Origin: an uncultured Anaerolineaceae bacterium
GTDB taxonomy: Bacteria > Chloroflexota > Anaerolineae > Anaerolineales > Anaerolineaceae
Direction of reading: 5' to 3'
Assembly: GCA_964507335.1 (NCBI GenBank)
Contig: CAZDPK010000003.1
Location: forward strand, 1,262 to 65,261
Length of the DNA: 64,000 nucleotides
Part shown: one piece after another, positions 2,600 to 58,314 of the stretch
Position numbering within the stretch: position 1 is the first letter of the stretch
How the letters are laid out: every line of letters starts with the position of its first letter
Program-made: the position numbers and the translations under genes
The notes under the pieces: model-generated
Databases searched by the model: none
What the model was told of the DNA's origin: nothing
What the model saw: the letters and a program-made list of their open reading frames with translations, nothing else

Positions 2600-4255
2600 A
2601 TGACAGACCTAACACAATTTGATCAATGGCAGGAGAAATGCTACGATCCCGCCGTCAAGCGTTTCCCAGAACGAAAAGAGCAGTTCAAAACTTCATCCAA
2701 TATCCCTGTTCCAGCGGTTGTCCCACCTGAGAAAATTAACCCGGAGCAATTCGAAGAACTCGGTCTTCCCGGCATGTACCCTTACACTCGCGGTGTTCAA
2801 CCGACCATGTACCGCGGACGTCTGTGGACCATGCGCCAATATGCTGGTTTCTCCAGCGCGGAAGAATCGAACAAACGCTACCGATTCCTGCTTGAGCAGG
2901 GACAAACAGGTTTGAGCGTCGCTTTCGATCTGCCGACTCAGATCGGCTATGATGCGGACGACCCGATTGCGCTGGGTGAAGTGGGTAAGGTGGGTGTCTC
3001 TATTTCCTCAATTGAGGACATGGAAACCCTCTTCAACCTGATCCCACTTGACAAGGTCTCTACAAGCATGACCATTAATGCGCCAGCTGCTGTACTGCTG
3101 GCAATGTATATTGCTGTAGCGAAAAAACAAGGTGTTTCAGCAGCAGCGCTACGCGGTACGATCCAGAACGACATCCTGAAAGAGTATATTGCTCGCGGGA
3201 CGTATATCTTCCCCCCTAAACCCAGCATGCGCCTCATTACGGATATCTTCCAATATTGCAGACAGGAAGTACCCAACTGGAACACGATCAGTATCTCTGG
3301 ATATCACATCCGCGAAGCCGGCTCAACGGCTGTGCAGGAAGTTGCGTTTACCCTGGCAAACGCCATTGCCTACATCGATGCAGCCATCAAGGCGGGCATG
3401 GATGTGGACGAATTTGCCGACCAACTGTCTTTCTTCTTTAATGCCCACAACAACTTCCTGGAAGAGGTTGCCAAATTTAGAGCAGCTCGTCGGCTCTATG
3501 CCAAAATCATGCGAGAACGTTTTGGTGCCAGGAAAAACAAATCGGAACTTCTGCGTTTCCACACCCAAACGGCGGGATCAACATTGACTGCACAGCAACC
3601 TGAAAACAACGTCGTCAGAGTGACTCTGCAAGCCCTGGCAGCTGTTTTGGGGGGAACCCAATCGCTGCATACCAACAGCATGGACGAAGCACTGTGGTTA
3701 CCAACGGAAAAATCGGTGCAGGTAGCGCTGCGTACTCAGCAAATAATTGGATATGAATCCGGTGTTGCTGATTCCGTTGATCCTTTGGCTGGTTCTTATC
3801 TGGTGGAATACCTGACCGATGAGATAGAGAATCAAGCCATTGAATACATTGAGAAAATCGATGCGTTCGGTGGGGCACTGGCAGCCATTGAAAATGGCTT
3901 TATTCAAAACGAAATCCAGGAAGCCGCCTACCAGGCGCAGCGCAACCTGGAAAGCCTGGAGGATATCGTGGTTGGTGTCAACAAATTCCAGGTTAAAGAA
4001 GAAATATCGCTGGAATCACTGAGAATTGATCCCAAGATCGAACAGGACCAGCGCGAACGTCTGGCTGCACTGCGTGCTTCCCGCGATCCACAGATGGTTA
4101 ATGCTTTGTTGGACAAACTTGAGCGAACCGCCAACAGCGATGCCAATCTGATGCCGGTGATTATTGAATGTGTGGAAAACAAACTCACTTTGGGTGAGAT
4201 CTGCAATCGTTTGAGAAAAGTTTGGGGTGAATACGTTGCCCCCAATTTTCTCTAA
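2600..4255 (+). CDS. Methylmalonyl-CoA mutase family, catalytic (substrate-binding TIM barrel) subunit; no B12-binding domain
   Basis: [62 protein letters not shown] is the MCM alpha signature. The length stops before the Rossmann-like cobalamin domain. RBS aggagagg precedes the ATG at 2600. Confidence 0.9.
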
Positions 4256-4275
4256 GAAACATCAATAGGAGAGAG

Positions 4276-4683
4276 ATGGCAAAAATTACCAAAGTGAACC
4301 ATGTGGCGATCGTTGTAAAAGATATCGAGGAATCGCTAAAGTTTTGGGAAGAAAGCCTGGGTCTGACCCTCGACCACATTGAAGTAGTTCCTTCCCAGAA
4401 TTCCCGGGTCGCTTTCATCCCCGTTGGTGAAAGCGAGGTCGAGCTGGTGCAGCCCACCAGCGCAGAGACCGGTCTGGCTGCCTACTTGGAAAAAAGGGGC
4501 GAGGGTATGCATCACCTCTGCATGGAAGTGGATGATATTGACGCGAAGTTGGCAGAACTCAAAGAAAAAGGCGTACGCCTGATCAATGAGACCCCCGAAG
4601 TTTTGCCTGGTCGTAAGATGGCATTTATCCATCCTAAAGCCGGAAATGGTGTGTTGATCGAACTTTACCAACTGACTGACTAA
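4276..4683 (+). CDS. mce: Methylmalonyl-CoA epimerase (VOC/glyoxalase fold)
   Basis: 135 aa with VNHVAIVVKDIEESLKFW...GMHHLCMEVDDID...FIHPKAGNGVLIELYQ, directly downstream of the mutase. Confidence 0.85.
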   Translation: MAKITKVNHVAIVVKDIEESLKFWEESLGLTLDHIEVVPSQNSRVAFIPVGESEVELVQPTSAETGLAAYLEKRGEGMHHLCMEVDDIDAKLAELKEKGVRLINETPEVLPGRKMAFIHPKAGNGVLIELYQLTD

Positions 4684-4709
4684 GCTCACCAAGCCACAAG
4701 GAGGCAAAA

Positions 4710-6050
4710 ATGATCATTAGGAACGGAAACATTGTCACATGGAGTGAACCTAACCAGATCTTGGAGGGGCAAGAAATTCTGGTCCAGGGTGGAATCATAA
4801 AGTCGATTGAGCCAGAAGGTCAGTTGACAGCAAAGTATCCAGAGGAAGAGGTATTGGATGCGCATGGTCAGTTGATCATGCCCGGTAATATCTGTGCACA
4901 TACTCACTTTTATGGCGCTTTTTCGCGCGGAATGGCAATTCCTGGTGAGCCGGCGATCAATTTCCAGCAAATCCTCGAAAAATTGTGGTGGAAATTGGAC
5001 AAAGCATTGGATGAAGAGGGCACCCGCTATTCTGCTTTGACACTGCTGATTGACGCCATCAAATACGGCACTACCACCGTCATAGACCACCATGCTTCGC
5101 CAAACTTCATCGATGGCTCGCTGGACATCGTTTACGATGCAGTCAAACAAACAGGATTGCGCTCTGCCTTATGTTATGAAGTAACTGACCGAGATGGCGA
5201 AGAACGTGCTTTAGCTGGTATCAGGGAAAACAGCCGCTTCATCAGCCGCGTCCAGGCAGGGGAGATCGACCCGATGGTTAAAGCTCATTTTGGCTTACAT
5301 GCCAGTCTGACTGTTTCTGATGAGACCCTTGATAAATGTATCGAAGAAAACGACAACCGGGTTGGTTTTCACGTACACGCTGCCGAAGGGATTGTTGACC
5401 AGGAGGATTCGCTGGCAAAATATGGCAAGCGGGTTGTGGAACGTTTCTCGGACAAGAAGATTCTAAGTGACCGCAGTATTTTGGCACACGGAATTCACCT
5501 CTCGGACAACGAAATAAAGCTCCTCGCAAAAAGCCAAAGCTGGCTGACACACCAACCGCGTTCCAATATGAACAATGCGGTCGGCGTTGCAGCCGTAGAA
5601 AAACTGCTGGAGAGCGGCGTGAATTTGTGTTTGGGTAACGATGGCTTTTCAAATGCCATGTGGCAGGAGTGGTTCTTCACTTATCTGCTGCAAAAAGACC
5701 ATAAGGGCGACCCGAGAGCGATGAACGGCTATGATGTCATCAAAATCGCAGTTAACAATAATTCAAGACTTGCTACCCAAATCTGGGGAGGTCTGCGCGT
5801 AGGTGTAATTGAACCGGGAGCAGTGGCTGATATTATTTTCGTTGATTATCACCCAATCACACCCATGACCAGTGGCAATTTGCCCTGGCATATCCTGTTT
5901 GGCTTTCGGGATGGCATGGTCACGATGACCATGGCAAACGGTAAGGTTTTGATGAAAGACCGCAAGCTCCAGTTCCTGGATGAGGCGGAAATTGCTGCAA
6001 AATCACGCGAAGTTGCTGCCCAGACCTGGGCACGCGTCGCACAATTGTAA
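4710..6050 (+). CDS. ssnA: SsnA-like amidohydrolase (chlorohydrolase/deaminase superfamily)
   Basis: Metal motif HTHFYGAFSRG, plus KLWWKLDKALDEE, VIDHHASP, HVHAAE, HQPRSNMNN and GNDG. As I remember them, these match the SsnA family (TIGR03314-like). The YgfM/XdhD-like context downstream supports the call. Confidence 0.7.
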   Translation: MIIRNGNIVTWSEPNQILEGQEILVQGGIIKSIEPEGQLTAKYPEEEVLDAHGQLIMPGNICAHTHFYGAFSRGMAIPGEPAINFQQILEKLWWKLDKALDEEGTRYSALTLLIDAIKYGTTTVIDHHASPNFIDGSLDIVYDAVKQTGLRSALCYEVTDRDGEERALAGIRENSRFISRVQAGEIDPMVKAHFGLHASLTVSDETLDKCIEENDNRVGFHVHAAEGIVDQEDSLAKYGKRVVERFSDKKILSDRSILAHGIHLSDNEIKLLAKSQSWLTHQPRSNMNNAVGVAAVEKLLESGVNLCLGNDGFSNAMWQEWFFTYLLQKDHKGDPRAMNGYDVIKIAVNNNSRLATQIWGGLRVGVIEPGAVADIIFVDYHPITPMTSGNLPWHILFGFRDGMVTMTMANGKVLMKDRKLQFLDEAEIAAKSREVAAQTWARVAQL

Positions 6051-6060
6051 TGGAGAAAAG

Positions 6061-6720
6061 ATGAAATACACAATTGGAATTATTGGTGGAACGGGTAAAG
6101 AAGGTAGTGGACTGGCTTATCGCTGGGCGTTGGCTGGTCATAAGGTGATCATCGGATCGCGCCAGGAAGAAAAAGCTCTGGCTGCTGTTGATTCTCTGCT
6201 CGAAAAGATTGGTGATCAGGAAGTTGATCTTTCCGGTATGTCGAATGCTGAGGCTGTAAAAGGGTGTGAAATTGCCGTTTTAACCGTCCCATTTGCGGTC
6301 CATGCTTCCACCCTTGAAGGATTGAAGGAAGAATTGCAGGGAAAACTGATGATCGATGTTTGCGTTCCCCTTGTACCTCCAAAAGTCAGCAAGGTGCAGA
6401 TGCCCCCGGAAGGCAGCGCTGCATTGCAAGCCAAAGCGATCCTGGGACCCGATGTGCAGGTTGTGGATGCTTTCCAAACAATTGCTTTTGAACACCTTTT
6501 ATCAAATGAAGAGATTGAATGTGACGTTTTGGTAGCTGGTGGAAACAAGGAAGCCCGCGAAATCGTGATTAGTTTGGCGGAAGATATTGGTTTGAAAGCT
6601 TGGGATGCCGGTGTAATTGAGAACACAGTTGTGGTCGAAGGAATGACATCGATTTTGATTGGTCTCAATATGAAATACAAAGTTCCTTCCTCAGGGATTC
6701 GCATAACTGGTATCGAATGA
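6061..6720 (+). CDS. npdG: NADPH-dependent F420 reductase (F420H2:NADP+ oxidoreductase, NpdG family)
   Basis: MKYTIGIIGGTGKEGSGLAYRWALAGHKVIIGSRQEEKA is the NpdG N-terminus, and the length is about 220 aa. Start taken at ATG 6061. The stop overlaps the cofE start (ATGA). Confidence 0.85.
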   Translation: MKYTIGIIGGTGKEGSGLAYRWALAGHKVIIGSRQEEKALAAVDSLLEKIGDQEVDLSGMSNAEAVKGCEIAVLTVPFAVHASTLEGLKEELQGKLMIDVCVPLVPPKVSKVQMPPEGSAALQAKAILGPDVQVVDAFQTIAFEHLLSNEEIECDVLVAGGNKEAREIVISLAEDIGLKAWDAGVIENTVVVEGMTSILIGLNMKYKVPSSGIRITGIE

Positions 6721-7496
6721 GCCAACCCAAACGACTCACACTCAGTGCAGTTGCTGGAATTCCACTCATCCATGAAGGTGACGATCTGGCAGAGATCATT
6801 TTTCAAGCGGCAATGGACTGTGACCTGACCTTTGAGGACGATGATGTATTGGTATTGGCGCAAAAAATAGTCTCTAAGGCGGAAGGTCGTCTGGTCAACC
6901 TGAGCAGTGTCACTCCTTCAGTTGAAGCAGTGGAATTGTCGACCTTTTTGGATAAACGACCTGAACTGGTGGAGTTGATTCTCAGGGAAAGTTCAGAGGT
7001 CCTTCGCACCCGGCCTGGCACAATCATCGTTCAACACAAAGCTGGCTTTGTGTGCGCAAATGCCGGCATCGATCATTCCAATGTCAAGGGACCTTGGGGT
7101 GAGGAAAACGATTGGGTATTGCTTTTGCCAGAGGATTCGGATCAATCTGCTGGGCGTATTCGAAAGCAGCTTGAAGAAAAAACAGGTAAACGGCTTGCGG
7201 TTCTAATTATTGATTCTCACGGGCGAGCCTGGCGAAATGGGGTTGTGGGTACAGCTATCGGTTTATCGGGGATGCCAGGCTTGGTGGACATGCGCGGAAC
7301 GGAAGATATGAACGGCTACAAGATGCGGGTGACGACAATTGCAGCAGCCGACGAGCTCGGTGCCGCAGCCTCCTTGCTAATGGGGCAGACCAGTGAAGGA
7401 ACGCCAGTGGTGCATGCGCGGGGTTTCCCGTATCCACTGCGTGAAGGTTGTGTGGCTGAATTGATCCGCGACAAGGAAAAAGACTTGTTCAGATGA
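6717..7496 (+). CDS. cofE: Coenzyme F420-0:L-glutamate ligase, single-domain (archaeal-type CofE, no nitroreductase-like C-domain)
   Basis: LAQKIVSKAEGRLV, ANAGIDHSNV and IIDSHGRAWRNGVVGTAIG. The protein is only 259 aa. Confidence 0.9.
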   Translation: MSQPKRLTLSAVAGIPLIHEGDDLAEIIFQAAMDCDLTFEDDDVLVLAQKIVSKAEGRLVNLSSVTPSVEAVELSTFLDKRPELVELILRESSEVLRTRPGTIIVQHKAGFVCANAGIDHSNVKGPWGEENDWVLLLPEDSDQSAGRIRKQLEEKTGKRLAVLIIDSHGRAWRNGVVGTAIGLSGMPGLVDMRGTEDMNGYKMRVTTIAAADELGAAASLLMGQTSEGTPVVHARGFPYPLREGCVAELIRDKEKDLFR

Positions 7497-8467
7497 GCGA
7501 ATTCACTTTTCCTCAATTTTCTACACTCAAAGTAGCTGTGCTGGCAGGAGGTGTTGGTGGGGCGAAACTGGTGCTTGGTCTGGACCGTGTGCTTTCCCCT
7601 GGAAGCCTGAGTGCCATTGTCAATACAGGAGACGATTTCACCCATTTTGGTCTGAAAATATGCCCGGATATTGATTCCGTCTGCTACTCACTGGCTGGCT
7701 TGGCGAACAAAAGCTACGGTTGGGGACTGGAAGGGGAAACCTGGAATGTTGCTGATGCGCTGGAAACCCTGGGGGCACCAACCTGGTTTCAACTGGGCGA
7801 TCGTGACCTGGCTACCCATCTCGAGCGCACACGCCAGTTAGGGCAGGGTAAAAAGCTTAACCAGATTGTGGCTGAATTTTGCGCAAACTGGGGTATTTTA
7901 AGCCACATTCTTCCTATGAGCGATGATGATGCACCGACCCTGATCGAGACCAAATCGGGAGCGATCTTACCTTTCCAGGATTATCTGGTCAAGGAGAAGG
8001 CACAGCCTGAAGTCAACCGAATCCTTCTGCATGGTGGGCTTGAGCCAACACTTCTGCCAGAGGCCCTGTTATCCATCAAGGAGGCAGACCTGGTTGTGAT
8101 AGCGCCATCTAATCCATGGGTAAGTATTGATCCAATTTTGGGATTGAGCGGTGTAAGAGAGGCATTGGAAACTAAGTATGTTGTGGCTGTGTCTCCAATA
8201 ATCCAGGGCAAAGCTATCAAGGGTCCGGCAGCGAAGATGTTTAACGAACTGGGCATCCAACCCTCCAGCCTGGCTGTTTTGAAACACTACTCGGATTTGC
8301 TTGATCTGTTTGTTTATGATGCCAGCGAAAAGCCAATTTCTTCAGCCGACATTCCAGAAGGTATAGAGACTATTCAACTTCAAACTATTATGTCCGATGA
8401 AGCAGATAAGGTTCAACTTGCCAGAGGCATCCTCGAGCATTTTACTGCCATGTATGGAGCCAGATGA
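7493..8467 (+). CDS. cofD: 2-phospho-L-lactate (or EPPG) transferase CofD/FbiA
   Basis: KVAVLAGGVGGAKLVLGL...VNTGDDF...APSNPWVSIDPIL. ATGA overlaps on both sides. Confidence 0.9.
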   Translation: MSEFTFPQFSTLKVAVLAGGVGGAKLVLGLDRVLSPGSLSAIVNTGDDFTHFGLKICPDIDSVCYSLAGLANKSYGWGLEGETWNVADALETLGAPTWFQLGDRDLATHLERTRQLGQGKKLNQIVAEFCANWGILSHILPMSDDDAPTLIETKSGAILPFQDYLVKEKAQPEVNRILLHGGLEPTLLPEALLSIKEADLVVIAPSNPWVSIDPILGLSGVREALETKYVVAVSPIIQGKAIKGPAAKMFNELGIQPSSLAVLKHYSDLLDLFVYDASEKPISSADIPEGIETIQLQTIMSDEADKVQLARGILEHFTAMYGAR

Positions 8468-9087
8468 CCTCGTGGGCAGTGCTTCCCGTTAAACCGCTGA
8501 GCAAGGGGAAGTCACGTTTGCATGGCTGCTTGAATGCTGAAGAAGTTTACTCGCTCAATCGCTGCTTTTTTGAAGAAACCTATCAGAAACTTAATGGCAG
8601 CAATGAAATAGACCGAATTCTGGTCGTGAGTCAGGATGAGGACGTGTTGAAATTTACGCGCCGTTTGGGCGGGGTAGCTTTGAAAGAAAACAAGCAAAGC
8701 AGCCTCAATGAAGCAGTGTCGCAAGCGCTCGCCTTTATTTTGGAAAACGACCCCGGCATGGTATTAATTGTGCCTGCCGATTTGCCTTGGATGACCGTAG
8801 AGGACCTGTCCGGGTTAATGAAGCTGCGCCAGAAAAAAGAATTTATGGTCATTGTTCCCGATCAAGATCAGCGGGGAACAAATGCGATCCTCCTCAGTCA
8901 GCCAGGCTTGCTCACTCCAAAATTTGGACGACAATCTTTTCAAAAACATGCCCAACAAGCAGCCAATCGATCCGTACAATTGGTCGTTTGGTTAAACAAA
9001 AACATCCAAAGGGACCTAGATACCCCTCAGGATTTGATATTCTATAATAAAATCAAGTTCAATCCAATCCATATATTTTCTGAGTAG
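8464..9087 (+). CDS. cofC: Guanylyltransferase CofC/FbiD of F420 biosynthesis
   Basis: WAVLPVKPLSKGKSRL...VSQDEDV...IVPADLPW...DQDQRGTNAIL, about 207 aa, MobA-like fold. Confidence 0.85.
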   Translation: MTSWAVLPVKPLSKGKSRLHGCLNAEEVYSLNRCFFEETYQKLNGSNEIDRILVVSQDEDVLKFTRRLGGVALKENKQSSLNEAVSQALAFILENDPGMVLIVPADLPWMTVEDLSGLMKLRQKKEFMVIVPDQDQRGTNAILLSQPGLLTPKFGRQSFQKHAQQAANRSVQLVVWLNKNIQRDLDTPQDLIFYNKIKFNPIHIFSE

Positions 9088-9102
9088 AAAGGACTTCTCA
9101 CT

Positions 9103-10104
9103 ATGTTCGAAAAAGTTGCTCTATACCTCCAGGACTCCCACGATTTACGCGATGGTCTTGAAATTGTGAAATACGCTGAAGAAAAAGGCTTCGATTCTGT
9201 TTGGCAGGCTGAAAGCCGGCTTGTCCGCGATGCAATCGTGCCGATGGCAGCTTATGCTGCAGTAACCGAAAAAATCAAGGTCGGTTCAGCGGTTATCAAT
9301 AACTGGACCCGTAATATTGGTCTGTTAGCTTCAACCTTCCTGACCATGGACGATCTTGCACCAAACCGGATTATTTGTGGCATCGGTGCCTGGTGGGATC
9401 CGTTGGCAAAAAATGTGGGCATTAACCGCACCAAACCATTGAAAGCGATGGAAGAAACTATTACCATCTTACGCAGGCTTCTGAATATGGAGAATGTTAC
9501 TTTCGAAGGTGAATTTGTCCAAGTTCACGGTATTGAACTGGACGTTGTTCACGGTCGTCGTGAACCCCGTAATGTTCCCATCTATATTGGCGCAACCGGC
9601 GGCAAGATGATTGAAATGACAGGGCGAATCGCCGATGGTATCGTCATGAACTATTGTGTGCCGGTGGAATACAACGACTATGCTCTGGAACAGCTTGACA
9701 AAGGCTTGAAACAAGCCGGGCGCAAAATGGAAGAATTTGACCGTCCGCAATTGGTGGTCTGCTCTGTGGACGAAGACCATGACAAGGCGATTGACACGAC
9801 CCGGGAATTGCTCACTCAATACCTGGCACAGCAACCTCACATCGCCCAGGCTTCTGGCGTTTCCATGGATATCGTTGAAAGTATCCAGGCGATTTTAGGC
9901 TGGCCAGCCACTCATGAGCAGATTCAGGCTGCCAAACATTTGGTTCCCGACGATTTGATCCACCGTATCACTGCCAGCGGCACGCCGGCTGAAGCCCGCG
10001 CTAAAGTGCAGGAATACATTGACCACGGTTGTACCTGTCCGATTCTGTATGGAGTCGGCGGAAATACCAAGCTTCTGATCGATACATTTGCTAAAGAGAG
10101 TTAA
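9103..10104 (+). CDS. LLM-class (luciferase-like, Mer-like) F420-dependent oxidoreductase
   Basis: 333 aa with [18 protein letters not shown]...[23 protein letters not shown]...[19 protein letters not shown]. Typical LLM/Mer family layout, adjacent to the cof genes. Confidence 0.8.
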
Positions 10105-10568
10105 TGGAAAAATTGCCTGGTAGCAAAGGCTGCTATGTTTGCGGGAGAGAAAACCCGATCTCCTTGAAACTGGAGTTTTTCGTGAATGAAAACGGAGATG
10201 TTATCTCTGAATTCAGTTTTGCTGAAAACTATGCCGGCTTTCCGGGGATGGTCCATGGCGGCAACATTGTGGCAGTTCTTGACGAAACAGCAGGCAGAGC
10301 GCTTACCACCGACGACCCGAATATTTTTATGGTCACAAGCGAATTGAAAGTAAAGTACATCAAACCTGTGCCGACCGACACTCCCCTGGTTGTGATTGGA
10401 AAGTTAGTGAAAAAACGCGGAAGATTGGCGGTCGGACACAGTGAAATACAGACGAAAGATGGTGTTGTTCTGGCAACCTGCGAAGCATTTTTTGTAGAGG
10501 TTACCGAAGAATTAACCCAAGGAGGAGACCTGGAAGAATCCGGGTGGAAGGTGTATCCAGATGACTGA
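10104..10568 (+). CDS. PaaI/4HBT-type hotdog-fold thioesterase with an N-terminal CxxC knuckle
   Basis: CYVCGRENPISLKL...GMVHGGNIVAVLDETAGRA. Its start shares one nucleotide with the upstream stop (TAATG). Confidence 0.8.
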   Translation: MEKLPGSKGCYVCGRENPISLKLEFFVNENGDVISEFSFAENYAGFPGMVHGGNIVAVLDETAGRALTTDDPNIFMVTSELKVKYIKPVPTDTPLVVIGKLVKKRGRLAVGHSEIQTKDGVVLATCEAFFVEVTEELTQGGDLEESGWKVYPDD

Positions 10569-11337
10569 AAAAACAATGCAATACATTCGACCTGTTTCCC
10601 TGGAGGAAGCATTGCTCTTGAAACAAGAATATGGCGACAGGGCAAAATTTCTGCTTGGAGGCGATTTCCGACCCAGGTTGGAGGATAACCTGGAGTTATT
10701 GATCGACCTGCAAGATGCCGGGCTGGACGGGATTGAATGGAACGAAAACGGGATGCAAATTGGTGGGCTGGCTACGCTGAAATCTTTGGAGGAAAACCTT
10801 GAACTACTTGATTTCAGTGAAGCCCTCAGCAATGAGTATGGATTGAATGTACGCAATACCCTCAGCCTTAGCAACTTTTTGGCTCAAACAAACGGGCGTT
10901 CTCCAGTTTTATGTTGTTTGCTCGCGCTCAATGCCAAAGTTGTTTTGCTAAAGAGGGCAGAGGAAATTTTCCTGGCAACGTTTTTACAAGAAAAAATCCA
11001 GGATGATCACGTGATTGAAATTCGAATTCCCAATCCGACTAACCTTGCCTTTGAAAGCGTAGGCAGAAGCCCTAAAGATCTACCGATTGTGTGTGTTGCT
11101 GCAGCAAAATCAGCGGACGGAGCGATCCACGTTGCTGTTGGAGGCAGCGTCGAAGTAAAACCCGGATTCATAATGCAAAACTATGACGATGATGGGTTGA
11201 CTGAGGTCAAAGCTGTTTTAGCAGACGCAGAAGATGAATGGGCTAGTGCAGAGTACCGGCAGGAGGTGGGGGCAGTGCTGCTTTCAAGAACCTTGCAAAA
11301 ACTGCACCTTCAGACAGGATGCCAGGAGGCGAAATGA
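10561..11337 (+). CDS. YgfM-like / CoxM-like flavoprotein subunit of a molybdenum hydroxylase; FAD motifs are degenerate
   Basis: 258 aa with overall CoxM/XdhB architecture (YIRPVSLEEALLL..., C-terminal SAEYRQEVGAVLLSRTL). However, GGDF replaces AGGTDL and LSLSNF replaces GT(I/V)GGN. Confidence 0.7.
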   Translation: MTEKTMQYIRPVSLEEALLLKQEYGDRAKFLLGGDFRPRLEDNLELLIDLQDAGLDGIEWNENGMQIGGLATLKSLEENLELLDFSEALSNEYGLNVRNTLSLSNFLAQTNGRSPVLCCLLALNAKVVLLKRAEEIFLATFLQEKIQDDHVIEIRIPNPTNLAFESVGRSPKDLPIVCVAAAKSADGAIHVAVGGSVEVKPGFIMQNYDDDGLTEVKAVLADAEDEWASAEYRQEVGAVLLSRTLQKLHLQTGCQEAK

Positions 11338-14246: not shown

Positions 14247-14253
14247 GCTGTTA

Positions 14254-15627
14254 ATGGAAAAAGGAATATATCAGAAGAAATCGTCCGATCGAATTTACGT
14301 AACAGGTCACATCAACCCTGATACTGACTCCATTGCATCAGCGATTGGTTACGCCTGGCTGCTTAATGAACGAGATGGGGAACCGACAGTGGCAAGTCGG
14401 GCTGGTGCGATAAACATGCAAACTCTGTTCGTGCTAAAGACTCTCGCGATCGAACCGCCTGTGCTCCTTACCGATGCCAGCCCTCGCTTTGATTCGGTTA
14501 TGCGGCGGTTGGATGTGGTTTCGCCAGAAAAATCACTTAATGAGGCCTGGACAATCCTCTCAAGAACCGGTGGCATTGCGCCGGTCGTAAACGACGATGG
14601 CACACCTTATGGCATGGTCACTGGCAGCAGCATGTTCGATTTCTTACGAAAAATTATTGGACCGCATCCCAAATTTCGAGATATGACCATCTCAGAGATG
14701 CTGGATATCCAGTGCCGGGAAGCTGCCACGCGCAATATTCCGAAATTCCAACCCCAGACCCGAATCAAAGATGTTATAAACCGTCTGCTTCGGCAGGAGT
14801 TCAACGAGTACTGGGTAGTGGATGAAAACAATCGTTATTTGGGCATAACCCGTCAGCGCGACATCGTCAACCCCCCACGAATCAAGGTAATTTTGGTCGA
14901 TCATAACGAACCTCAGCAATCGATTGCCTCTTTGGAAGAGAGCGAATTGCTTGAAATCCTTGATCATCATCGGCTCGGTAACCAATCTACGCACAATCCA
15001 ATTAAATTTACGGTAGATATTGTTGGCAGCACCTCAACCCTGGTATCTGAACAGATTTCTGAAGCTGGTTTGAGCGCGCCGCCAAATGTCGCCGGATTAT
15101 TGCTGGCAGGCTTGCTTTCCGATACGCTTATCCTGTCCTCACCGACAACTACTGCACGAGACAAGGCCATTGCCAACGTACTTGCTCGCTGGGCGTTTGT
15201 TCCTGGTTCGCCTCTGGAAAACGAAAACATCCAGAGCTGGGGTGAAAGCATCATCCATGCTGGCGCTGGATTGTTAACGCAGGAGCCGGATGTGATCGTC
15301 AGGACGGATATGAAGGTCTACGAAAACGGCGGATTTAAGTTTGCAGTCGCCCAGGTTGAAACTACCGATTTGTACCAGATTGGTGAATATGTTGATCCAT
15401 TAAGGAAGGCGTTGGTCGGTCTGAATAAGGAACAAGGGCTCGATTTTGCCGGTCTGATGGTAACTGATGTGGTTGAGGGTTCCAGTCGGTTGGTTTTTGT
15501 GGATGCCCCACCGGCTTTGGACGAATTACCTTACGAACCCCTGCCCGATGGAACGGTTTTAGCGGATGGCGTTGTTTCTCGCAAGAAGCAGTTGTTGCCG
15601 ATCATTTTATCTTTACTTGAGGTGTAA
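14254..15627 (+). CDS. CBS-domain-containing family II (DHH/DHHA2) inorganic pyrophosphatase
   Basis: YVTGHINPDTDSIASAIGYAWL, a CBS pair inserted at about aa 70-200, then ILVDHNE, ILDHHRLG and a DHHA2-like C-terminus. Confidence 0.8.
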   Translation: MEKGIYQKKSSDRIYVTGHINPDTDSIASAIGYAWLLNERDGEPTVASRAGAINMQTLFVLKTLAIEPPVLLTDASPRFDSVMRRLDVVSPEKSLNEAWTILSRTGGIAPVVNDDGTPYGMVTGSSMFDFLRKIIGPHPKFRDMTISEMLDIQCREAATRNIPKFQPQTRIKDVINRLLRQEFNEYWVVDENNRYLGITRQRDIVNPPRIKVILVDHNEPQQSIASLEESELLEILDHHRLGNQSTHNPIKFTVDIVGSTSTLVSEQISEAGLSAPPNVAGLLLAGLLSDTLILSSPTTTARDKAIANVLARWAFVPGSPLENENIQSWGESIIHAGAGLLTQEPDVIVRTDMKVYENGGFKFAVAQVETTDLYQIGEYVDPLRKALVGLNKEQGLDFAGLMVTDVVEGSSRLVFVDAPPALDELPYEPLPDGTVLADGVVSRKKQLLPIILSLLEV

Positions 15628-16394
15628 TGAAGGAACTATACGAAAAATTGTACGAAGCAACCAAGTCAGGACAACCAGTATGTCTGTGTATAGTAATTGA
15701 AACCAAGGGTGCCGTTCCGCGGCATGCAGGCAGCAAGATGCTGGTCTATCCGAATGGGCTGACATTTGGCTCAGTTGGTGGTGGGCAAGTTGAGAATGAG
15801 ACTGTGGAAGCTGCTTTTCGAGCCTTGAAAACGGGCCAACCGGAGATTGTTCGTTACACGCTTGACCCGAAACAACAAAATGCAGTCGGAGTATGCGGCG
15901 GTGATGTGACGGTGTATGTAGAACCTCAGTCTGTCCGCCCGATTTTGTTGATCCTGGGTGCGGGTCATGTTGGACGTTCGATGGCGAAATTTGCCCAGCT
16001 GCTTGATTTCAGGGTGATTGTATCTGATGACCGGGCTGATCTTTGCACCAGTGAACAGATCCCTGGCGATGTCGAGTTTCTGCCAATCCCGATGCAAGAA
16101 ATTCCAGCCTATGTTGACATCAATGAGCAGGTCTACATCGTGGGTGTCACCCGCGGTAGCGACGTAGATATTATAGGTTTGCCAGCAATTCTGCAGCACA
16201 CACCGGCATACATCGGGCTGATTGGCTCGTTGAAGCGTTGGGGTACCACCAAAAAAGCCCTACTTGAGCAAGGTATCGCCAGGGAAAAAATCGAACTGAT
16301 CAAATCACCAATTGGAATTGACATCGAAGCCGAAACACCGGATGAGATTGCTATCAGCATTTTGGCTGAGGTTATCCAGGCCCGGAATAGTTAA
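15627..16394 (+). CDS. xdhC: XdhC/CoxI-family molybdenum-hydroxylase maturation factor
   Basis: XdhC_CoxI N-domain (CLCIVIETKGAVPRHAGSKMLV...GSVGGGQVE) followed by a Rossmann part (LILGAGHVGRSMAKFA). Confidence 0.85.
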   Translation: MKELYEKLYEATKSGQPVCLCIVIETKGAVPRHAGSKMLVYPNGLTFGSVGGGQVENETVEAAFRALKTGQPEIVRYTLDPKQQNAVGVCGGDVTVYVEPQSVRPILLILGAGHVGRSMAKFAQLLDFRVIVSDDRADLCTSEQIPGDVEFLPIPMQEIPAYVDINEQVYIVGVTRGSDVDIIGLPAILQHTPAYIGLIGSLKRWGTTKKALLEQGIAREKIELIKSPIGIDIEAETPDEIAISILAEVIQARNS

Positions 16395-16414
16395 TTTACC
16401 TCCAGGAGGCACCT

Positions 16415-17827
16415 ATGTGGAAGAACTATCACATGCCAGAATCGGTTGAGCAGGTGATTGACCTGTTGAGCCGGGCAGGCAGCCAGACAAAGATCATCGC
16501 AGGAGGAACCGACCTGATGATCGAAATTCGGGATGGCAAATGGCCGGGCTTGGAGGATGTTATCGACATTACCAGAGTTCGTGGTCTTGACAGCATCTAC
16601 CAGGATGAAGAGGGTTTGGTACATATCCAGGCCAATGTGACTCATAATGATGTTCTCAAGTCAGATTTGATTCGTGAAACAGGGTCGCCTCTTTACCAGG
16701 CTTGTTACCGGGTTTCATCACCGCAATTGCGCAATCGCGCAACTGTGGTTGGTAACCTGGTGACCGCTTCTCCAGCCAATGACACAATTACCCCCTTGAT
16801 GGCAATGGATGCCAGCCTCGTGTTGGTCTCTGGCAGAGGAGAGAGACATGTACGATTGAACGAGTTTTACCTTGGTTTGCGAAAAAGTGTGAAACAACCT
16901 GATGAACTGGTTAGCGAGATTATCTTTCAACCGTTGGAAGCCACTCAAAAAGGCAGCTTCATCAAACAAGCACTGAGGAAAACCCAGGCAATTGCTACCT
17001 TGAATTGCTGCGTGCTGCTTGACATCCATGATGGCTTGATTGTGAATGCCGCTGTAACGATGGGTTCTGTGGCACCGACTGTCATCCATTCGATTGCAGC
17101 TGAAGAGTTCCTACATGGCAAAAGTTTGAGTGCAGAGACAGCCAGAAGAGCTTCTGAATTAGCAGCTCTCGATACAAGGACAATCAGCGATCTGCGAGGT
17201 GGTGCCGATTATCGCAAGTACATGATGCAGGTGATCGTTGAAGATGCCCTAAAGGAACTGATTGATAATCGACAGGATCTAAAAGTTCCTGAAAATCCTG
17301 TCACCTTGAGCCAGGGGGCAGGCTGGCAAGCCGTTCCAGATGGAACATGGGACCAGGAGCATATCTCGACTACCATCAATGGACAACCCATGCAATTTGG
17401 GGGAGAAATTAAGGGTACCCTTCTAAATTTCGTTCGGGAGCGTGTAGGTTATAGTGGACCAAAGCCTGGTTGTGAGGAAGGCGAGTGTGGAGCCTGCACA
17501 ATGTACCTGGATGGCAAGGCTGTGGTCAGCTGCCTGGTGCCTGCTCCGAGAGCGCATATGGCGACTATCACAACCGTTGAGGGTCTGGCAGATGAAGGTC
17601 AACTTCACCCGGTTCAACAACAGTTTATCAAGCATGGTGCGGTGCAATGCGGCTACTGTACCCCTGGTTTTGTGATGGCAGCTGCAAAATTAATGGAAGA
17701 AAAACCTCATCCAACGGAAGAAGAAATCAAGGATGGGATCTCAGGCAACTTGTGTCGGTGTACTGGCTATTACAAAATTATTCAAGCAATCGAAGCAGCT
17801 TGCCAGGATGACGGAGGTGCGCAATGA
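16415..17827 (+). CDS. Molybdenum hydroxylase electron-transfer subunit: FAD-binding (CoxM-like) domain fused N-terminal to a [2Fe-2S] (CoxS-like) domain
   Basis: Canonical IIAGGTDLM and RNRATVVGNL FAD motifs. C-terminal part has GCEEGECGACTMYLDG, QCGYCTPGFV and LCRCTGY. Confidence 0.88.
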   Translation: MWKNYHMPESVEQVIDLLSRAGSQTKIIAGGTDLMIEIRDGKWPGLEDVIDITRVRGLDSIYQDEEGLVHIQANVTHNDVLKSDLIRETGSPLYQACYRVSSPQLRNRATVVGNLVTASPANDTITPLMAMDASLVLVSGRGERHVRLNEFYLGLRKSVKQPDELVSEIIFQPLEATQKGSFIKQALRKTQAIATLNCCVLLDIHDGLIVNAAVTMGSVAPTVIHSIAAEEFLHGKSLSAETARRASELAALDTRTISDLRGGADYRKYMMQVIVEDALKELIDNRQDLKVPENPVTLSQGAGWQAVPDGTWDQEHISTTINGQPMQFGGEIKGTLLNFVRERVGYSGPKPGCEEGECGACTMYLDGKAVVSCLVPAPRAHMATITTVEGLADEGQLHPVQQQFIKHGAVQCGYCTPGFVMAAAKLMEEKPHPTEEEIKDGISGNLCRCTGYYKIIQAIEAACQDDGGAQ

Positions 17828-20067
17828 ACGAAGTCGGAAAATCAACCACCCGTATTGACGCTCTGGCAAAAGTGAGCGGAAAAGCAAAGTATCCGGGCGA
17901 CTTCACTTTTGCAGATCAATTGACCATGAAAGTCTTGTTTTCAGAGCGGGCGCACGCACGAATTCTATCCATAGATAGTTCAGCAGCTGAAGCTTTGGAC
18001 GGTGTTGTCCTTGTGCTTACAGCCCGGGATGTTCCTGTTAACGAGTATGGTCTGATCATGAATGACCAGCCTGTACTTTGCGGACCAGGCTCGAGCAAAG
18101 AAGGGTCAGATGTCGTCCGTTTTCACGGAGACCAGGTCGCATTGGTGATTGCAGAGAGCCCCGAAATTGCCACGAAGGCACTTTCCCTGATCAAAGTTGA
18201 GTACCAGGAGCTTCCCATCGTAAAAACATTGGGAGAGGCACTCAAAGAGGGCGCAACTATTTTGCACCCCGCACGAACTTCGAATATCTTCCACCACAAC
18301 GTAGTCAGGTTAGGCAATGTAGAGGAGGCTTTCAAATCTTGTGATTTGATCATCGAGGGCGAGTATCAGACACCTATCCAGGAGCATGCTTATCTTCAGC
18401 CTGAAGCCGGAATAGCCTATCTCGATGAAGAAGAAAGGATTACTGTCGTGGTTGGCGGGCAATGGACCCACGAAGATCAGGAGCAGATTGCGCATTCACT
18501 TGCGCTGCCGCTTGAGAAGATCAGGGTCATTTATCCGGCAATAGGCGGTGCATTCGGCGGCAGAGAAGACATGTCCATCCAAATTATTCTAGGATTGGCT
18601 GTACTGCGATTGCATGAAAAAGGCATTGACCGACCAGTGAAAATTGTCTGGTCACGGGAAGAATCAATGTTGGGGCATGCCAAGCGTCATGCCTATACAA
18701 TGAAAGCCAAGTGGGGAGCTACGAATGATGGCAAGATCCTGGCTGCTCAGTGTGAGATCTGGGCGAATGGCGGGGCTTATGCTTATACCTCTACCAAGGT
18801 GCTGGGGAATGCCACGCTTTTGGCAAGTGGACCTTACGAGATTCCAAACATAGCGACTGATGCTTATGCAGTTTATACCAACGATATTCCTGGCGGAGCT
18901 TTCCGTGGTTTTGGTGGTCCACAGGCAGCTTTTATGGCTGAGATGCAGATGGATAAGCTGGCAGATGCCTTGAAGATGGACCCAGTTGAACTGCGGATGC
19001 GCAATCTTTTCAAAGAAGGCTCCATCATCTCTATGGGTTCGGTTATTCCCGAAGGAGTAACAATCCGCCAGGTGACCGAGCGCTGCGCACTGGAAGCAGG
19101 TTGGAAGAAGACAGAAACAGGGTGGCAAAGACCGCTTGTACCTGCATCAGACAATCCGGACATCAAGTCGGCCTGGAGTTTGGTCTGCGGATTTAAGAAT
19201 GTTGGCTTTTCCTACGGTGCCCCTGAAAACTGTGGGGCGACCATTGTGTTGGAAGGCGACCAGGAGATCGAAATTGCCAGGCTCTACCATGCTGGCGCAG
19301 AGGTGGGGCAGGGTTCTCACACGATTTTCGCTCAAATTGCTGCTGAGGCTTTGGGGCTTTCGTTGGCTAAGATTCAAACTTTTTACTCAGACACGGCTAC
19401 ATCTCTCAATGCCGGCAGTGTATCTGCATCACGCATGACACATATGGGTGGCAATTCCATTATTGGAGCTGCGAAACTAGCTTTGGAGAAATGGGCTGAA
19501 GGCAATCGACCAGCGATTGGTTCACATGTTTATCGACCGCCGAAGACGACCCCGATGGATCAGGTGGATGGGCATTGTTACCCGAACTTTACCTATGGTT
19601 ACGTTGCCCAGGCTTTCCTGGTTGATGTCGATACTCGCAGCGGGAATGTTCAGCTCCGAGAGGTGATCAGCGTGGATGACGTAGGTAAGGCGATCAACCC
19701 GCAATTGGTGGAAGGACAAATAGAAGGCGCTGTTGTTCAGGCTGCTGGTTATTCTCTTATGGAGAATTGGAAAAAGAAAGATACCAAAGCCTTGACGGAT
19801 CGCCTTTCAAGATATCTCATTCCAACGGTGAAAGACATTCCTTTAAAAACGCGGAGTGTGATAATGGAGTTAGCAGATCCCATCGGTCCTTATGGTGCCA
19901 GAGGTGTGGGCGAGATGCCCTATCTGCCTTTTGCAGCTGGTGTGCTGGAGGCTGTCTACCAGGCTATAGGCGTGCGGTTCGATCGTTTCCCGCTCACCGA
20001 TGAGACCGTTTTGCGTGGTTTAGGAAAATTGCCTGCGCAAGATGTCGGTTTCTGGGATTACGAGTAA
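17824..20067 (+). CDS. Molybdopterin-binding large subunit of a xanthine dehydrogenase/aldehyde oxidase family enzyme
   Basis: 747 aa with IGGAFGGRED, GGAFRGFGGPQAAF and ARGVGEMPYLP (catalytic Glu motif). ATGA overlap with the upstream subunit. Confidence 0.9.
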   Translation: MNEVGKSTTRIDALAKVSGKAKYPGDFTFADQLTMKVLFSERAHARILSIDSSAAEALDGVVLVLTARDVPVNEYGLIMNDQPVLCGPGSSKEGSDVVRFHGDQVALVIAESPEIATKALSLIKVEYQELPIVKTLGEALKEGATILHPARTSNIFHHNVVRLGNVEEAFKSCDLIIEGEYQTPIQEHAYLQPEAGIAYLDEEERITVVVGGQWTHEDQEQIAHSLALPLEKIRVIYPAIGGAFGGREDMSIQIILGLAVLRLHEKGIDRPVKIVWSREESMLGHAKRHAYTMKAKWGATNDGKILAAQCEIWANGGAYAYTSTKVLGNATLLASGPYEIPNIATDAYAVYTNDIPGGAFRGFGGPQAAFMAEMQMDKLADALKMDPVELRMRNLFKEGSIISMGSVIPEGVTIRQVTERCALEAGWKKTETGWQRPLVPASDNPDIKSAWSLVCGFKNVGFSYGAPENCGATIVLEGDQEIEIARLYHAGAEVGQGSHTIFAQIAAEALGLSLAKIQTFYSDTATSLNAGSVSASRMTHMGGNSIIGAAKLALEKWAEGNRPAIGSHVYRPPKTTPMDQVDGHCYPNFTYGYVAQAFLVDVDTRSGNVQLREVISVDDVGKAINPQLVEGQIEGAVVQAAGYSLMENWKKKDTKALTDRLSRYLIPTVKDIPLKTRSVIMELADPIGPYGARGVGEMPYLPFAAGVLEAVYQAIGVRFDRFPLTDETVLRGLGKLPAQDVGFWDYE

Positions 20068-20665
20068 GGAATTGAAAGAACATCAAGTCGCCGGGGTTAT
20101 CCTGGCTGCAGGTCAGGCGAGCCGTTTTGGCAAAATCAAACAGCTCTTGCCATGGCGAGACAAGAATTTGATCAATACCGTTGTTGAAACTGCCTTGTTG
20201 GCGGGTCTTAACCCAATCATAGTTGTCTTGGGTGCTGATGCCGAGGAAATTCGAGCGACTATCAATGAAGATATTGTTCAAGTGATCATCAATCCGGATT
20301 GGGACAAAGGGCAAAGCACCTCTCTTAGGGCTGGCATTTCTGTAATGCCACAATCTGTTGATGGGATCGTCTTTTTGCTCTGTGACCAGCCTCATCAATC
20401 CGTGAATTTGGTAAGTGCTGTTGTTGAAAAAGGCTTGAGAAGTGGAAAAGTAGTTACACCGATCATTGATGACCGGCGGGCAAATCCGGTTTACTTTCCA
20501 GCCTTTTGTATTCCTTTGTTCGAGAAACTGGAAGGGGATGCTGGCGGAAGGCAGATTATTTCGGATTGTCCGAATACCACGATGCTCTGGTTGGATGCCT
20601 GGATGGCGAAGGATATCGATACACCGGAGGATTACCGAGAACTTCGCGAGCATTTTGGATTGTGA
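20042..20665 (+). CDS. mocA: MobA-like nucleotidyltransferase, probably molybdenum cofactor cytidylyltransferase (MocA/YgfJ type)
   Basis: GVILAAGQASRFGKIKQLLPW...IVVLGA...DKGQSTSLRAG...LCDQP. The start is uncertain; ATG 20042 overlaps the upstream gene by 26 nt. Confidence 0.8.
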   Translation: MSVSGITSKELKEHQVAGVILAAGQASRFGKIKQLLPWRDKNLINTVVETALLAGLNPIIVVLGADAEEIRATINEDIVQVIINPDWDKGQSTSLRAGISVMPQSVDGIVFLLCDQPHQSVNLVSAVVEKGLRSGKVVTPIIDDRRANPVYFPAFCIPLFEKLEGDAGGRQIISDCPNTTMLWLDAWMAKDIDTPEDYRELREHFGL

Positions 20666-20835
20666 GTAGGTCAACCTGATCTTTTCACTCAGAATGAGCT
20701 TAAGAATTTTCTTGAATTGGTTGCTTTGATTCTTCGTGATGCAAGCTCAGGATGACAGATCGAAAAACACTGTACCACCGAAGGTAGGTACGCAAATTGC
20801 ACGCTAAAGTATAATAGAACCAACTTGGAAAACTA

Positions 20836-58246: not shown

Positions 58247-58314
58247 AAGTGCACCTCCACACAAGAATTGCTGAATTATAATATTATCATTCCAAATGCT
58301 AACGAGGAGATAAG

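Follow-up and report, generated by a model that had tools for sequence, protein, structure and literature searches.

A 16-gene run joining SsnA, F420 genes and two molybdenum hydroxylases in Anaerolineaceae: a candidate F420-dependent variant of the upper reductive urate pathway

We analysed a 64,000-nucleotide stretch of contig CAZDPK010000003.1 from an uncultured Anaerolineaceae bacterium (hereafter the window), in which 16 intact open reading frames (ORFs) lie head to tail on the + strand between positions 2600 and 20665 (Table 1). The run begins with a methylmalonyl-CoA mutase (MCM) gene and its epimerase, continues with the amidohydrolase gene ssnA, genes for coenzyme F420 and a luciferase-like monooxygenase (LLM) family enzyme, and ends with the genes of two molybdenum hydroxylases and their maturation factors. 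Gene identities were obtained from Pfam and NCBIfam profile searches, which matched every label, and the gene order, of the original prediction made from the letters of this DNA. A script that reads the junctions likewise bore out its account of 16 + strand genes, nine overlaps and no gap above 26 nt. ATGA start/stop overlaps were found at 6717, 7493, 8464, 11334 and 17824 (the one at 11334, read directly, is GAAATGAACT, with ATG at 11334-11336 and TGA at 11335-11337), TAATG junctions at 10104 and 15627, and longer overlaps of 8 nt at 10561 and 26 nt at 20042. The other six gaps are 20, 26, 10, 15, 7 and 20 nt, where the 10-nt gap before the F420 reductase gene (fno) depends on the start that the gene caller placed at 6061. 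Tight same-strand packing is common in the window, as other runs show gaps of 8, -29, -1 and 9 nt and of 15, -8 and 2 nt; since it is ordinary in this genome, the overlaps alone are not remarkable. What raises the run above chance is how long it is and that other species conserve it.

The 16 genes form four modules placed end to end. Module A consists of the MCM catalytic chain and the epimerase, module B of SsnA, Fno, CofE, CofD, CofC and the LLM, module C of a hotdog-fold protein and the YgfM-like and XdhD-like subunits, and module D of a CBS-domain pyrophosphatase, XdhC, the FAD/FeS and molybdenum subunits of the second hydroxylase, and MocA.

Table 1. Genes of the run and associated signals in the window, with the profile evidence for each.
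Feature	Coordinates	Strand	Evidence
Leader motifs, conserved	2557..2582	+	-10-like TATACTTA 2557-2564; GTTAACCATTAACC 2569-2582; about 40 nt 5' of the MCM ATG
Gene 1, methylmalonyl-CoA mutase catalytic (N-terminal) chain	2600..4255	+	PF01642 752 bits; TIGR00641 792 bits, above cut-off
Gene 2, methylmalonyl-CoA epimerase	4276..4683	+	TIGR03081 139 bits (cut-off 115)
Gene 3, SsnA-family amidohydrolase	4710..6050	+	NF005540 532 bits (cut-off 444); TIGR03314 about 501 bits (cut-off 455.5)
Gene 4, Fno/NpdG NADPH-dependent F420 reductase	6061..6720	+	TIGR01915 203 bits (cut-off 150)
Gene 5, CofE, F420-0:gamma-glutamyl ligase	6717..7496	+	TIGR01916 258 bits (cut-off 181)
Gene 6, CofD, 2-phospho-L-lactate transferase	7493..8467	+	TIGR01819 297 bits (cut-off 257)
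Gene 7, CofC, F420-biosynthesis guanylyltransferase	8464..9087	+	TIGR03552 142 bits (cut-off 105)
Gene 8, Mer-like F420-class LLM oxidoreductase	9103..10104	+	PF00296 214 bits; no NCBIfam cut-off reached
Gene 9, hotdog-fold (PaaI-like) thioesterase-family protein	10104..10568	+	PF03061 50 bits; TIGR00369 36.6 bits, exactly at cut-off
Gene 10, YgfM-like small FAD-binding subunit	10561..11337	+	PF00941 49.5 bits; TIGR03312 72 bits (cut-off 241.5, far below)
Gene 11, XdhD-like fused 2Fe-2S + molybdopterin subunit	11334..14246	+	Fer2, Fer2_2, Ald_Xan_dh_C, MoCoBD_1/2; below all NCBIfam equivalog cut-offs
Gene 12, CBS-domain family II inorganic pyrophosphatase	14254..15627	+	DHH, CBS, DHHA2; NF011443 321 bits, just under 335
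Gene 13, XdhC-family molybdenum cofactor insertion/maturation factor	15627..16394	+	PF02625 (XdhC_CoxI) + PF13478 (XdhC_C); below equivalog cut-off
Gene 14, FAD + 2Fe-2S subunit of second molybdenum hydroxylase	16415..17827	+	FAD_binding_5, CO_deh_flav_C, Fer2_2
Gene 15, molybdopterin subunit of second molybdenum hydroxylase	17824..20067	+	best NCBIfam pucD 513 bits (cut-off 784)
Gene 16, MocA-like molybdenum cofactor cytidylyltransferase	20042..20665	+	PF12804 (NTP_transf_3) 114 bits; TIGR03310 141 bits (cut-off 186)
glmS ribozyme RF00234	20825-20993	+	Rfam 36.9 bits vs gathering 37.0, E 2.5e-7

The original prediction knew of no described pathway with this composition. However, SsnA, YgfM-XdhD, xanthine dehydrogenase (XDH), an XdhC-family factor and MocA make up the parts list of the reductive urate pathway (via 2,8-dioxopurine, or 'yanthine') described in two 2025 studies (PMC12507026; bioRxiv 10.1101/2025.04.24.650524). 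There, XdhD-YgfM (DOPDH in Clostridium) strips the 6-hydroxyl from urate to give 2,8-dioxopurine, the ring is dearomatised by YgfK (DOPOR; with NADPH, in E. coli) or by UacX (PydA-like; in C. difficile), SsnA then opens it, and pyruvate is formed via diaminopropionate. Degradation of hypoxanthine and xanthine by C. sporogenes needs XDH as well as the urate-reducing DOPDH, which explains the two molybdenum hydroxylases in our run; YqeB/YqeC and SelD are present in every gut strain that has the pathway. In the work of Li et al. (2025), YgfK activity was detected only in coupling with SsnA, which these authors regard as the most reliable pathway marker. In their SsnA genome-neighbourhood network, Chloroflexota neighbourhoods are without YgfK and UacX and contain a PF00296 'luciferase family' member, a putative F420-dependent enzyme, which these authors propose to be an F420-dependent yanthine reductase. 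This configuration is the same as that of our window; it was given as one sentence and a coloured network, without gene order or experiments, and we found no published work going beyond that prediction. Judged by its genes, the run thus appears to be a variant of a known pathway, foreseen by Li et al. in that sentence.

The amidohydrolase of the run aligns over its full length with E. coli SsnA (37% identity, tblastn) and passes the profile that marks the reductive urate cluster (IPR017700/TIGR03314). Gene 10 and E. coli YgfM are reciprocal best matches (28.7% identity, 73 bits), with no match of gene 10 to XdhB, and the molybdenum domain of gene 11 and E. coli XdhD are likewise reciprocal best matches (535 bits, 39.8% identity, as compared with 441 bits for XdhA); against TIGR03313, gene 11 reaches 675 bits (cut-off 1102). 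The architecture of the pair, a fused FeS-Mo subunit and a small separate FAD subunit, is identical to the XdhD/YgfM type, and the closest solved structure to gene 11 is the alpha subunit of 4-hydroxybenzoyl-CoA reductase (1rm6, 366 bits), a reductive dehydroxylase. We predict that gene 11 encodes a urate 6-dehydroxylase, which would convert urate to 2,8-dioxopurine. An identity as 4-hydroxybenzoyl-CoA reductase, which would tie in the thioesterase and the mutase, was rejected as the main reading because XdhD scores higher. It also fails on the flavin subunit: that of 4-hydroxybenzoyl-CoA reductase carries a 4Fe-4S insert, for which the 258-aa YgfM-like subunit, with its single FAD_binding_5 domain, has no room. 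The N-terminal '2Fe-2S' domain of E. coli XdhD (L010:24317-27187) is without most of its cysteine ligands in the alignment, and the window protein (11334-11900) keeps them in the motifs CGACT, CGYC and CRC.

In the second hydroxylase, the FAD part of gene 14 is the reciprocal best match of E. coli XdhB and gene 15 pairs with XdhA. Gene 15 contains the motifs GGAFGGRE, AFRGFGGPQ and GEMP, which we take to correspond to Glu802, Arg880 and Glu1261 of bovine XDH, residues of xanthine binding and activation. Genes 14 and 15 are probably a xanthine/hypoxanthine dehydrogenase by these motifs and pairings, a tentative substrate given that the best solved-structure match of gene 15 is the nicotinate dehydrogenase NdhL. 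Maturation of the molybdenum cofactor (Moco) is represented by the MocA-like gene 16 and by gene 13 of the XdhC/YqeB family, which aligns at 32.5% identity with the N-terminal half of YqeB from E. coli. Separately, a YqeB-family protein absent from the window (TIGR03309, selenium-dependent Moco maturation, 296 bits, cut-off 220) stands at the 3' end of the cluster in nine more distant species (L026, L028, L030, L035, L036, L039, L041, L063 and L067, e.g. L039:19614-20420). Selenium dependence may differ between lineages; the scanned window proteins include no selenophosphate synthetase, where no search aimed at SelD was made.

The LLM of the run belongs to the F420-using rather than the FMN-using branch of its family. 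All of its 15 best NCBIfam matches are F420-class LLMs, and among solved structures Mer stands nearest (E 5.5e-39 over about 300 residues), followed by Fgd and Adf, F420 enzymes as well; FMN-dependent LLMs come in at E about 1e-6. It scores 183 bits against the Mer equivalog (cut-off 276), and since no cut-off of a named F420 LLM subfamily was reached, it represents a separate subfamily. This subfamily is tight, as the next full-length relatives are only 41-48% identical (50%-cluster search). Like Mer (PDB 8qq8, 1z69, 1f07), the protein is a member of the TIM-barrel LLM family, in which Mer passes the hydride of F420H2 to a C-N centre within a fused N-heterocycle; unlike Mer, it occurs in a bacterial host, with no methanopterin genes seen in the window, and its genomic partner is an amidohydrolase instead of C1-pathway genes. 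Its gene is flanked by those of Fno and CofC/D/E. We predict that it is an F420H2:2,8-dioxopurine reductase acting in place of YgfK/UacX.

The pairing of LLM and SsnA recurs in further arrangements. Six to eight species have, directly 5' of the LLM and after a GltD/YgfT-like Fe-S flavoprotein, a second bona fide SsnA (559 bits). The contigs of the nearest outgroup LLMs were mostly too short, with P0122 and P0123 informative: in P0122 the LLM is preceded by CofC, and in P0123 it is followed by an amidohydrolase. One outgroup LLM (45% identity) overlaps, stop to start, with the gene of a related TRZ/ATZ-type amidohydrolase. As the YgfK reaction is seen only when SsnA pulls (Li et al.), such a pairing is expected for an enzyme in that slot. 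The flavoprotein and second SsnA were located between cofC and the LLM in L055, L072-L074, L078 and L086 (e.g. L074:5746-9552); in L055 and L078 this copy is the sole SsnA detected in the locus.

How does the F420 block compare with known F420 operons? Those of Actinomycetota and Chloroflexota (fno with cofC-cofD-cofE or fbiA-fbiB plus an LLM or FDOR), as covered in the passages searched of a review (PMC8498797), contain the same block of CofC, CofD, CofE, Fno and an F420-class LLM. Unlike them, as far as those passages go, the block here starts with SsnA in a purine-catabolic context, with no Fo synthase seen in the window, and the window's clade is without the FbiB-C-like gene; the passages name no purine-catabolic role for F420. 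More distant relatives of the window also carry, as in the operons described there, an FbiB-C-like nitroreductase and a PPOX-class F420 oxidoreductase. Within the window, CofC, CofD and CofE pass their cut-offs and no Fo synthase (CofG/CofH/FbiC) was found, the only radical-SAM protein among the Pfam-scanned window proteins being RlmN-like; no complete F420 route was seen in the window. In the more distant Anaerolineales (L033-L090; e.g. L074:2565-3957, L060:6758-8268), the F420 block has three extra genes. They encode an FbiB-C-terminal-like nitroreductase, placed between cofE and cofD in 25 species, a PPOX-class F420 oxidoreductase of TIGR03618 in 16 and a 2H-phosphoesterase in 15. The 64-kb window has no tblastn match for any of the three, which may hint at another F420 tail route in the window's clade. 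A small pyrophosphatase-like ORF was seen within the F420 block of five other species. As the irreducible conserved unit is SsnA plus the F420 genes plus the LLM, we considered whether SsnA or the LLM could be an F420-biosynthetic enzyme. We rejected this, because no known step fits an SsnA-type amidohydrolase and relatives with the FbiB-C-like reductase still keep the LLM.

Set against the known purine clusters, the run would follow the same logic with one exchange. The E. coli island includes xdhABC, yqeB (XdhC family), mocA, ygfK, ssnA, ygfM and xdhD, and in a tblastn search of its proteins against the window each had a counterpart but YgfK, which has no match in the loci of 80 related species either. 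UacX was not a query; no Pfam-scanned window protein matched a PydA/DHODH-type family. We compared the arrangement with the E. coli cluster (ygeW-ygeX-ygeY-hyuA-yqeA ... mocA-ygfK-ssnA-ygfM-xdhD, with xdhABC) and with those of C. sporogenes and C. difficile. Like these, the window has SsnA, an XdhD-like FeS-Mo subunit with a YgfM-like FAD subunit, a second XDH-type enzyme, an XdhC-family factor and MocA, and its predicted logic, oxidising to urate, dehydroxylating C6, reducing the ring and hydrolysing it, agrees with theirs. Unlike these, it has an F420-class LLM with Fno and CofC/D/E instead of YgfK/UacX, it is without the YqeB-specific domain, YqeC and a purine permease, and it adds the hotdog protein, the CBS-pyrophosphatase and the MCM-epimerase pair; its proteins are only 24-40% identical to their E. 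coli counterparts. Two window genes were considered as lower-pathway enzymes and rejected: the M20 peptidase (25954-27123) as YgeY, being a TIGR01891 amidohydrolase, and the pyridoxal-phosphate enzyme (34541-35626) as YgeX, being a threonine synthase. Neither has a tblastn match to the E. coli protein.

Is this arrangement common to other Anaerolineales? To answer this question, we scanned one genome per GTDB species with the LLM as anchor and kept the best 80 of at least 600 matches, i.e. 80 species, extracting 10 kb on either side of the LLM and searching all 16 proteins with tblastn; denominators below are loci with enough flank. These best 80 loci are labelled Anaerolineales or Chloroflexota, save for one metagenome-assembled genome that is labelled Bacteroidota (L075); its LLM is 76% identical to the window's and it is probably a misbinned Anaerolineales contig. 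Close LLM homologs in public records are named Anaerolineaceae or Chloroflexi. The full 16-gene order was found in at least 13 other Anaerolineaceae species, so that the run is not an accident of one genome, and it recurs in JGI, NCBI and ENA contigs with an LLM 89-91% identical and with two different upstream contexts. The sole stretch conserved across the 80 species is SsnA-Fno-CofE-CofD-CofC-LLM, at about 90% or more of loci: SsnA lies 5' of the F420 block in 60/64, and Fno is present in 60/65, CofE in 63/68, CofD in 62/72 and CofC in 76/77. Conservation drops beyond the LLM, with the hotdog protein, which sits between the LLM and YgfM-like genes with overlapping junctions, in 30 of 77 loci, the YgfM-like subunit in 41 of 75 and the XdhD-like one in 36 of 70. 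An XDH-family molybdenum subunit of any kind lies within 10 kb in 34 of the 47 full-length loci. Median junction gaps are short in the core (Fno-CofE -1 nt, CofD-CofC -2 nt, CofC-LLM 18 nt, LLM-hotdog 4 nt, hotdog-YgfM -8 nt, YgfM-XdhD 2 nt, XdhD-pyrophosphatase 5.5 nt, pyrophosphatase-XdhC -1 nt), and in the close clade the rearrangements seen are at module borders and none is inside SsnA-to-XdhC. The LLM is the most conserved protein of the cluster, with 75-96% identity across the 80 species as compared with 51-87% for SsnA and 26-70% for the YgfM-like subunit. The joining of cofactor synthesis (the F420 tail and the cytidine dinucleotide form of Moco) with cofactor users, which the original prediction had pointed out, is a real and conserved feature. 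Three loci contain other genes between the YgfM-like and XdhD-like genes (L057:12902-15808, L060:12324-16522, L074:14735-17623), namely a PreP-type M16 peptidase, a DNA methylase and PMT_2 glycosyltransferases; these large ORFs had been considered as YgfK substitutes and were rejected on these identities. Clusters of Anaerolineales thus accept foreign genes.

Beyond the sentence of Li et al., our analysis adds that the F420 genes lie between SsnA and the LLM, that a six-gene core spans 80 species, that the Mer-like LLM evolves more slowly than any other protein of the cluster, that the lower pathway is unlinked in these species, and that the MCM pair is clade-specific.

Taking these observations together, we consider it somewhat more probable than its opposite (roughly 55%) that the run holds an F420-dependent variant of the upper half of the reductive urate pathway, formed by modules B and C, to which module A is an unrelated add-on. 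What our data show are the module boundaries, the conservation, the architecture and the identities of the genes; from here on, substrates, reaction directions and F420 as the donor of the hydride to the purine are inferred. Genes 14 and 15 would oxidise hypoxanthine and xanthine to urate, from which the XdhD-like/YgfM-like molybdoenzyme (genes 10 and 11) would remove the 6-hydroxyl to give 2,8-dioxopurine. The Mer-like LLM would then dearomatise this ring with a hydride from F420H2, and SsnA would open the reduced ring by hydrolysis, pulling the unfavourable reduction forward. Fno would regenerate F420H2 from NADPH, while CofC, CofD and CofE would build the F420 tail on Fo and XdhC and MocA would mature Moco in its cytosine dinucleotide form. 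The CBS-pyrophosphatase may clear the inorganic pyrophosphate released by CofC and MocA.

A further-reaching form of this proposal is that Anaerolineales finish F420 largely for purine-ring dearomatisation, with the LLM as an F420H2:2,8-dioxopurine reductase and obligate partner of SsnA, and with a different, undescribed lower pathway after ring opening, the last part following from HyuA, YgeW, YgeY and YgeX being unlinked in 80 species. The LLM would then be the first F420-dependent enzyme of purine catabolism. We hold this combination only tentatively, at rather less than even odds. Uptake of the deazaflavin head group from co-living methanogens could account for our not seeing an Fo synthase in the window.

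Several observations weigh against an F420-dependent urate pathway. No homologs of HyuA, YgeW, YgeY, YgeX or YqeA were found in the window (E <= 1e-3) or in the 10-kb flanks of the LLM in the 80 species (UacY was not queried), and tblastn detected no urate/xanthine permease homolog in the window. Nor does the window match YqeC or the specific domain of E. coli YqeB, of which only the XdhC-like N-terminal half aligns, and the known pathway offers no function for the hotdog protein. The XdhD-like, YgfM-like, XdhC and MocA proteins all stay under their NCBIfam equivalog cut-offs. Thirteen of the 47 full-length loci carry SsnA-F420-LLM without a nearby XDH-family molybdenum subunit. Because unrelated genes lie inside the cluster in other Anaerolineales, co-location is weaker evidence of shared function here than usual. 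Conservation as high as that of the LLM (75-96%) is not usual in a catabolic reductase and lacks an explanation. Glu606 of XdhD, singled out by Li et al., was tried as a marker of urate reductases versus xanthine dehydrogenases and rejected as not discriminating, since in the aligned EG motif gene 15 likewise has a Glu, as does bovine XDH; the segment is missing only from E. coli XdhA. Finally, the solved structures closest to genes 15 and 11 are nicotinate dehydrogenase and 4-hydroxybenzoyl-CoA reductase. Together, these points keep a reading with another heterocycle alive.

In such a reading, the same logic of dehydroxylation, reduction with F420H2 and hydrolysis would serve another oxopurine, a pterin or a pyridine such as nicotinate. 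The unlinked lower pathway, the molybdenum subunits below all equivalog cut-offs, the two structure matches and the missing permease would fit it, as would the facts that Mer, the closest characterised relative of the LLM, reduces a pterin derivative and that the outgroup LLM is paired with a non-SsnA TRZ/ATZ amidohydrolase. We nevertheless regard another substrate as unlikely. Gene 15 retains what we take to be the three bovine XDH residues that bind and activate xanthine. Genes 10 and 11 find their reciprocal best matches in YgfM and XdhD and not in XdhB and XdhA, the parts list mirrors the E. coli island, and gene 3 passes the curated equivalog model for SsnA, the marker that Li et al. hold most reliable.

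The genes might also be neighbours without shared function, a general F420 operon with a general-purpose F420 enzyme that came to lie beside purine genes in a compact genome. Indeed, packing is tight elsewhere in the window, unrelated genes are inserted in the cluster of other species, the MCM-epimerase pair and the pyrophosphatase are without an obvious purine link, and the F420 block of relatives carries other F420 enzymes, i.e. the PPOX-class oxidoreductase and the FbiB-C-like nitroreductase. However, SsnA keeps its place directly 5' of fno in 60/64 loci across the span of an order, while its sequence has diverged to 51-61% identity, rearrangements in the close clade respect the stretch from SsnA to XdhC, and second SsnA copies land beside the LLM. 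Moreover, the one missing enzyme of the known pathway is a reductase that transfers hydride, which is just the kind of enzyme to which the LLM belongs. We therefore consider a mere neighbourhood quite improbable.

In a consensus scan, neither promoter-like sites (22 vs 21.3 +/- 4.9 in shuffles) nor terminator-like sites (30 vs 21.6 +/- 5.5) showed an excess, and every terminator-like + strand hairpin within the run lies inside coding sequence. Obvious internal signals are absent, in line with the original prediction, which saw no terminator-like hairpin inside. Upstream of the MCM gene, the TATACTTA box about 40 nt from the ATG is kept in 13/13 species of the clade; in the 13-species alignment, TATAC/ATT stands at a constant distance from the ATG, including in L002, which has different upstream genes. 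In this clade, the leader motifs TATACTTA and GTTAACCATTAACC, conserved in the 13 species, probably serve the run as promoter and operator, the latter for some regulator; no regulator gene lies within the cluster. Thus, to judge from these motifs, the whole run is probably read in this clade from one promoter 5' of the MCM gene. A riboswitch or leader RNA upstream of the run was rejected, as Rfam gave no such match at gathering level across the window, nor at E <= 1 in 2100-2700. Between the L9 gene and the -10-like box, and 5' of the presumed transcript start, we noted a 15-pair hairpin with a T-rich tail behind it, at 2406-2441 (+). On its 5' side, the run is bordered by genes for ribosomal protein L9 and a RodZ-like protein on the opposite strand. 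On its 3' side follows a 324-nt gap with a TATAAT at 20810-20815 and a glmS ribozyme, which the default Rfam scan missed because its score is 0.1 bit below gathering; these two elements make glmS (20990-22831) a separate unit, and the run ends at 20665.

Although in this genome the MCM-epimerase pair probably shares a transcript with the other genes of the run, its evolutionary history and chemistry mark it as a separate module. It is attached only in the closest clade, being present in 13/13 loci with an LLM at least 84% identical to the window's, in 1/9 at 80-84% and in 0/39 below 80%. The epimerase-SsnA junction is a loose one, with a median of 53 nt: in L018 the pair is inverted, in L023, L026 and L028 other genes are inserted and the distance to SsnA grows to 1.6-4.4 kb, with an own TATAAT-type promoter before SsnA, and in L024 the epimerase gene is followed by a canonical terminator, CCAGGTTATTGCAACCTGG then seven T. 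Distant species in which SsnA comes first have an extended -10 (TGnTAnAAT) about 45 nt upstream of it, and the 26-nt epimerase-SsnA gap of the window has none of these terminator or promoter signals. As to chemistry, gene 1 aligns only to residues 53-546 of E. coli ScpA, and no B12-binding domain or subunit and no MeaB/ArgK were found in the 64-kb window or in the loci of the relatives; of the parts of a functional mutase system (catalytic chain, B12 part and MeaB/ArgK), the locus thus holds the catalytic chain. By its distribution and gene content, the pair appears to be an unrelated propionyl-/succinyl-CoA module that later joined the 5' end of the operon in a single Anaerolineaceae clade.

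This bears on the original claim that all 16 genes form one self-contained, undescribed pathway, which would end in acyl-CoA rearrangement. Co-directional genes with gaps of at most 26 nt, the full order in at least 13 species, the conserved promoter-like motif before MCM with none evident before SsnA in the window, and a closest solved relative of gene 11 that acts on a CoA thioester speak for such a pathway, yet we consider it very improbable, given that the pair is absent from the cluster in all 39 more distant species and is displaced or closed off in nearer ones, that the B12-binding subunit and MeaB are not there, that the known pathway ends in pyruvate and not in propionyl-/methylmalonyl-CoA, and that the YgfM-like subunit would have no 4Fe-4S insert. 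Nor does self-containment hold for the remainder of the run: the lower purine pathway was found neither in the window nor in the 80 loci, and the former showed no Fo synthase.

The rest of the window consists of housekeeping genes, e.g. for GlmS, Mrp, TatC, SMC, RNase III, FtsZ, RF, FtsY, ClpP and glycosidases. For three sizeable ORFs on the - strand, 43543-45132, 48185-49459 and 57470-58264 (529, 424 and 264 aa), Pfam gave nothing at E <= 0.01.

The mutase pair calls for caution, since it shows that long tightly coupled runs in these genomes can mix unrelated modules. To judge from sample names and match titles, anaerobic digesters and sediments seem to be the main source of these Anaerolineaceae, and in such habitats purines are freed by nucleic-acid turnover. 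If the LLM is indeed the ring reductase, it would represent a third, iron-sulfur-free solution to the hardest step of the urate pathway, after the NAD(P)H/YgfK and ferredoxin/UacX routes, and the LLM/SsnA pair would be a compact, oxygen-tolerant candidate for engineered urate-degrading strains. For F420 itself, this would mean a role in central nitrogen-heterocycle catabolism, beyond methanogenesis, antibiotic synthesis and xenobiotic reduction.

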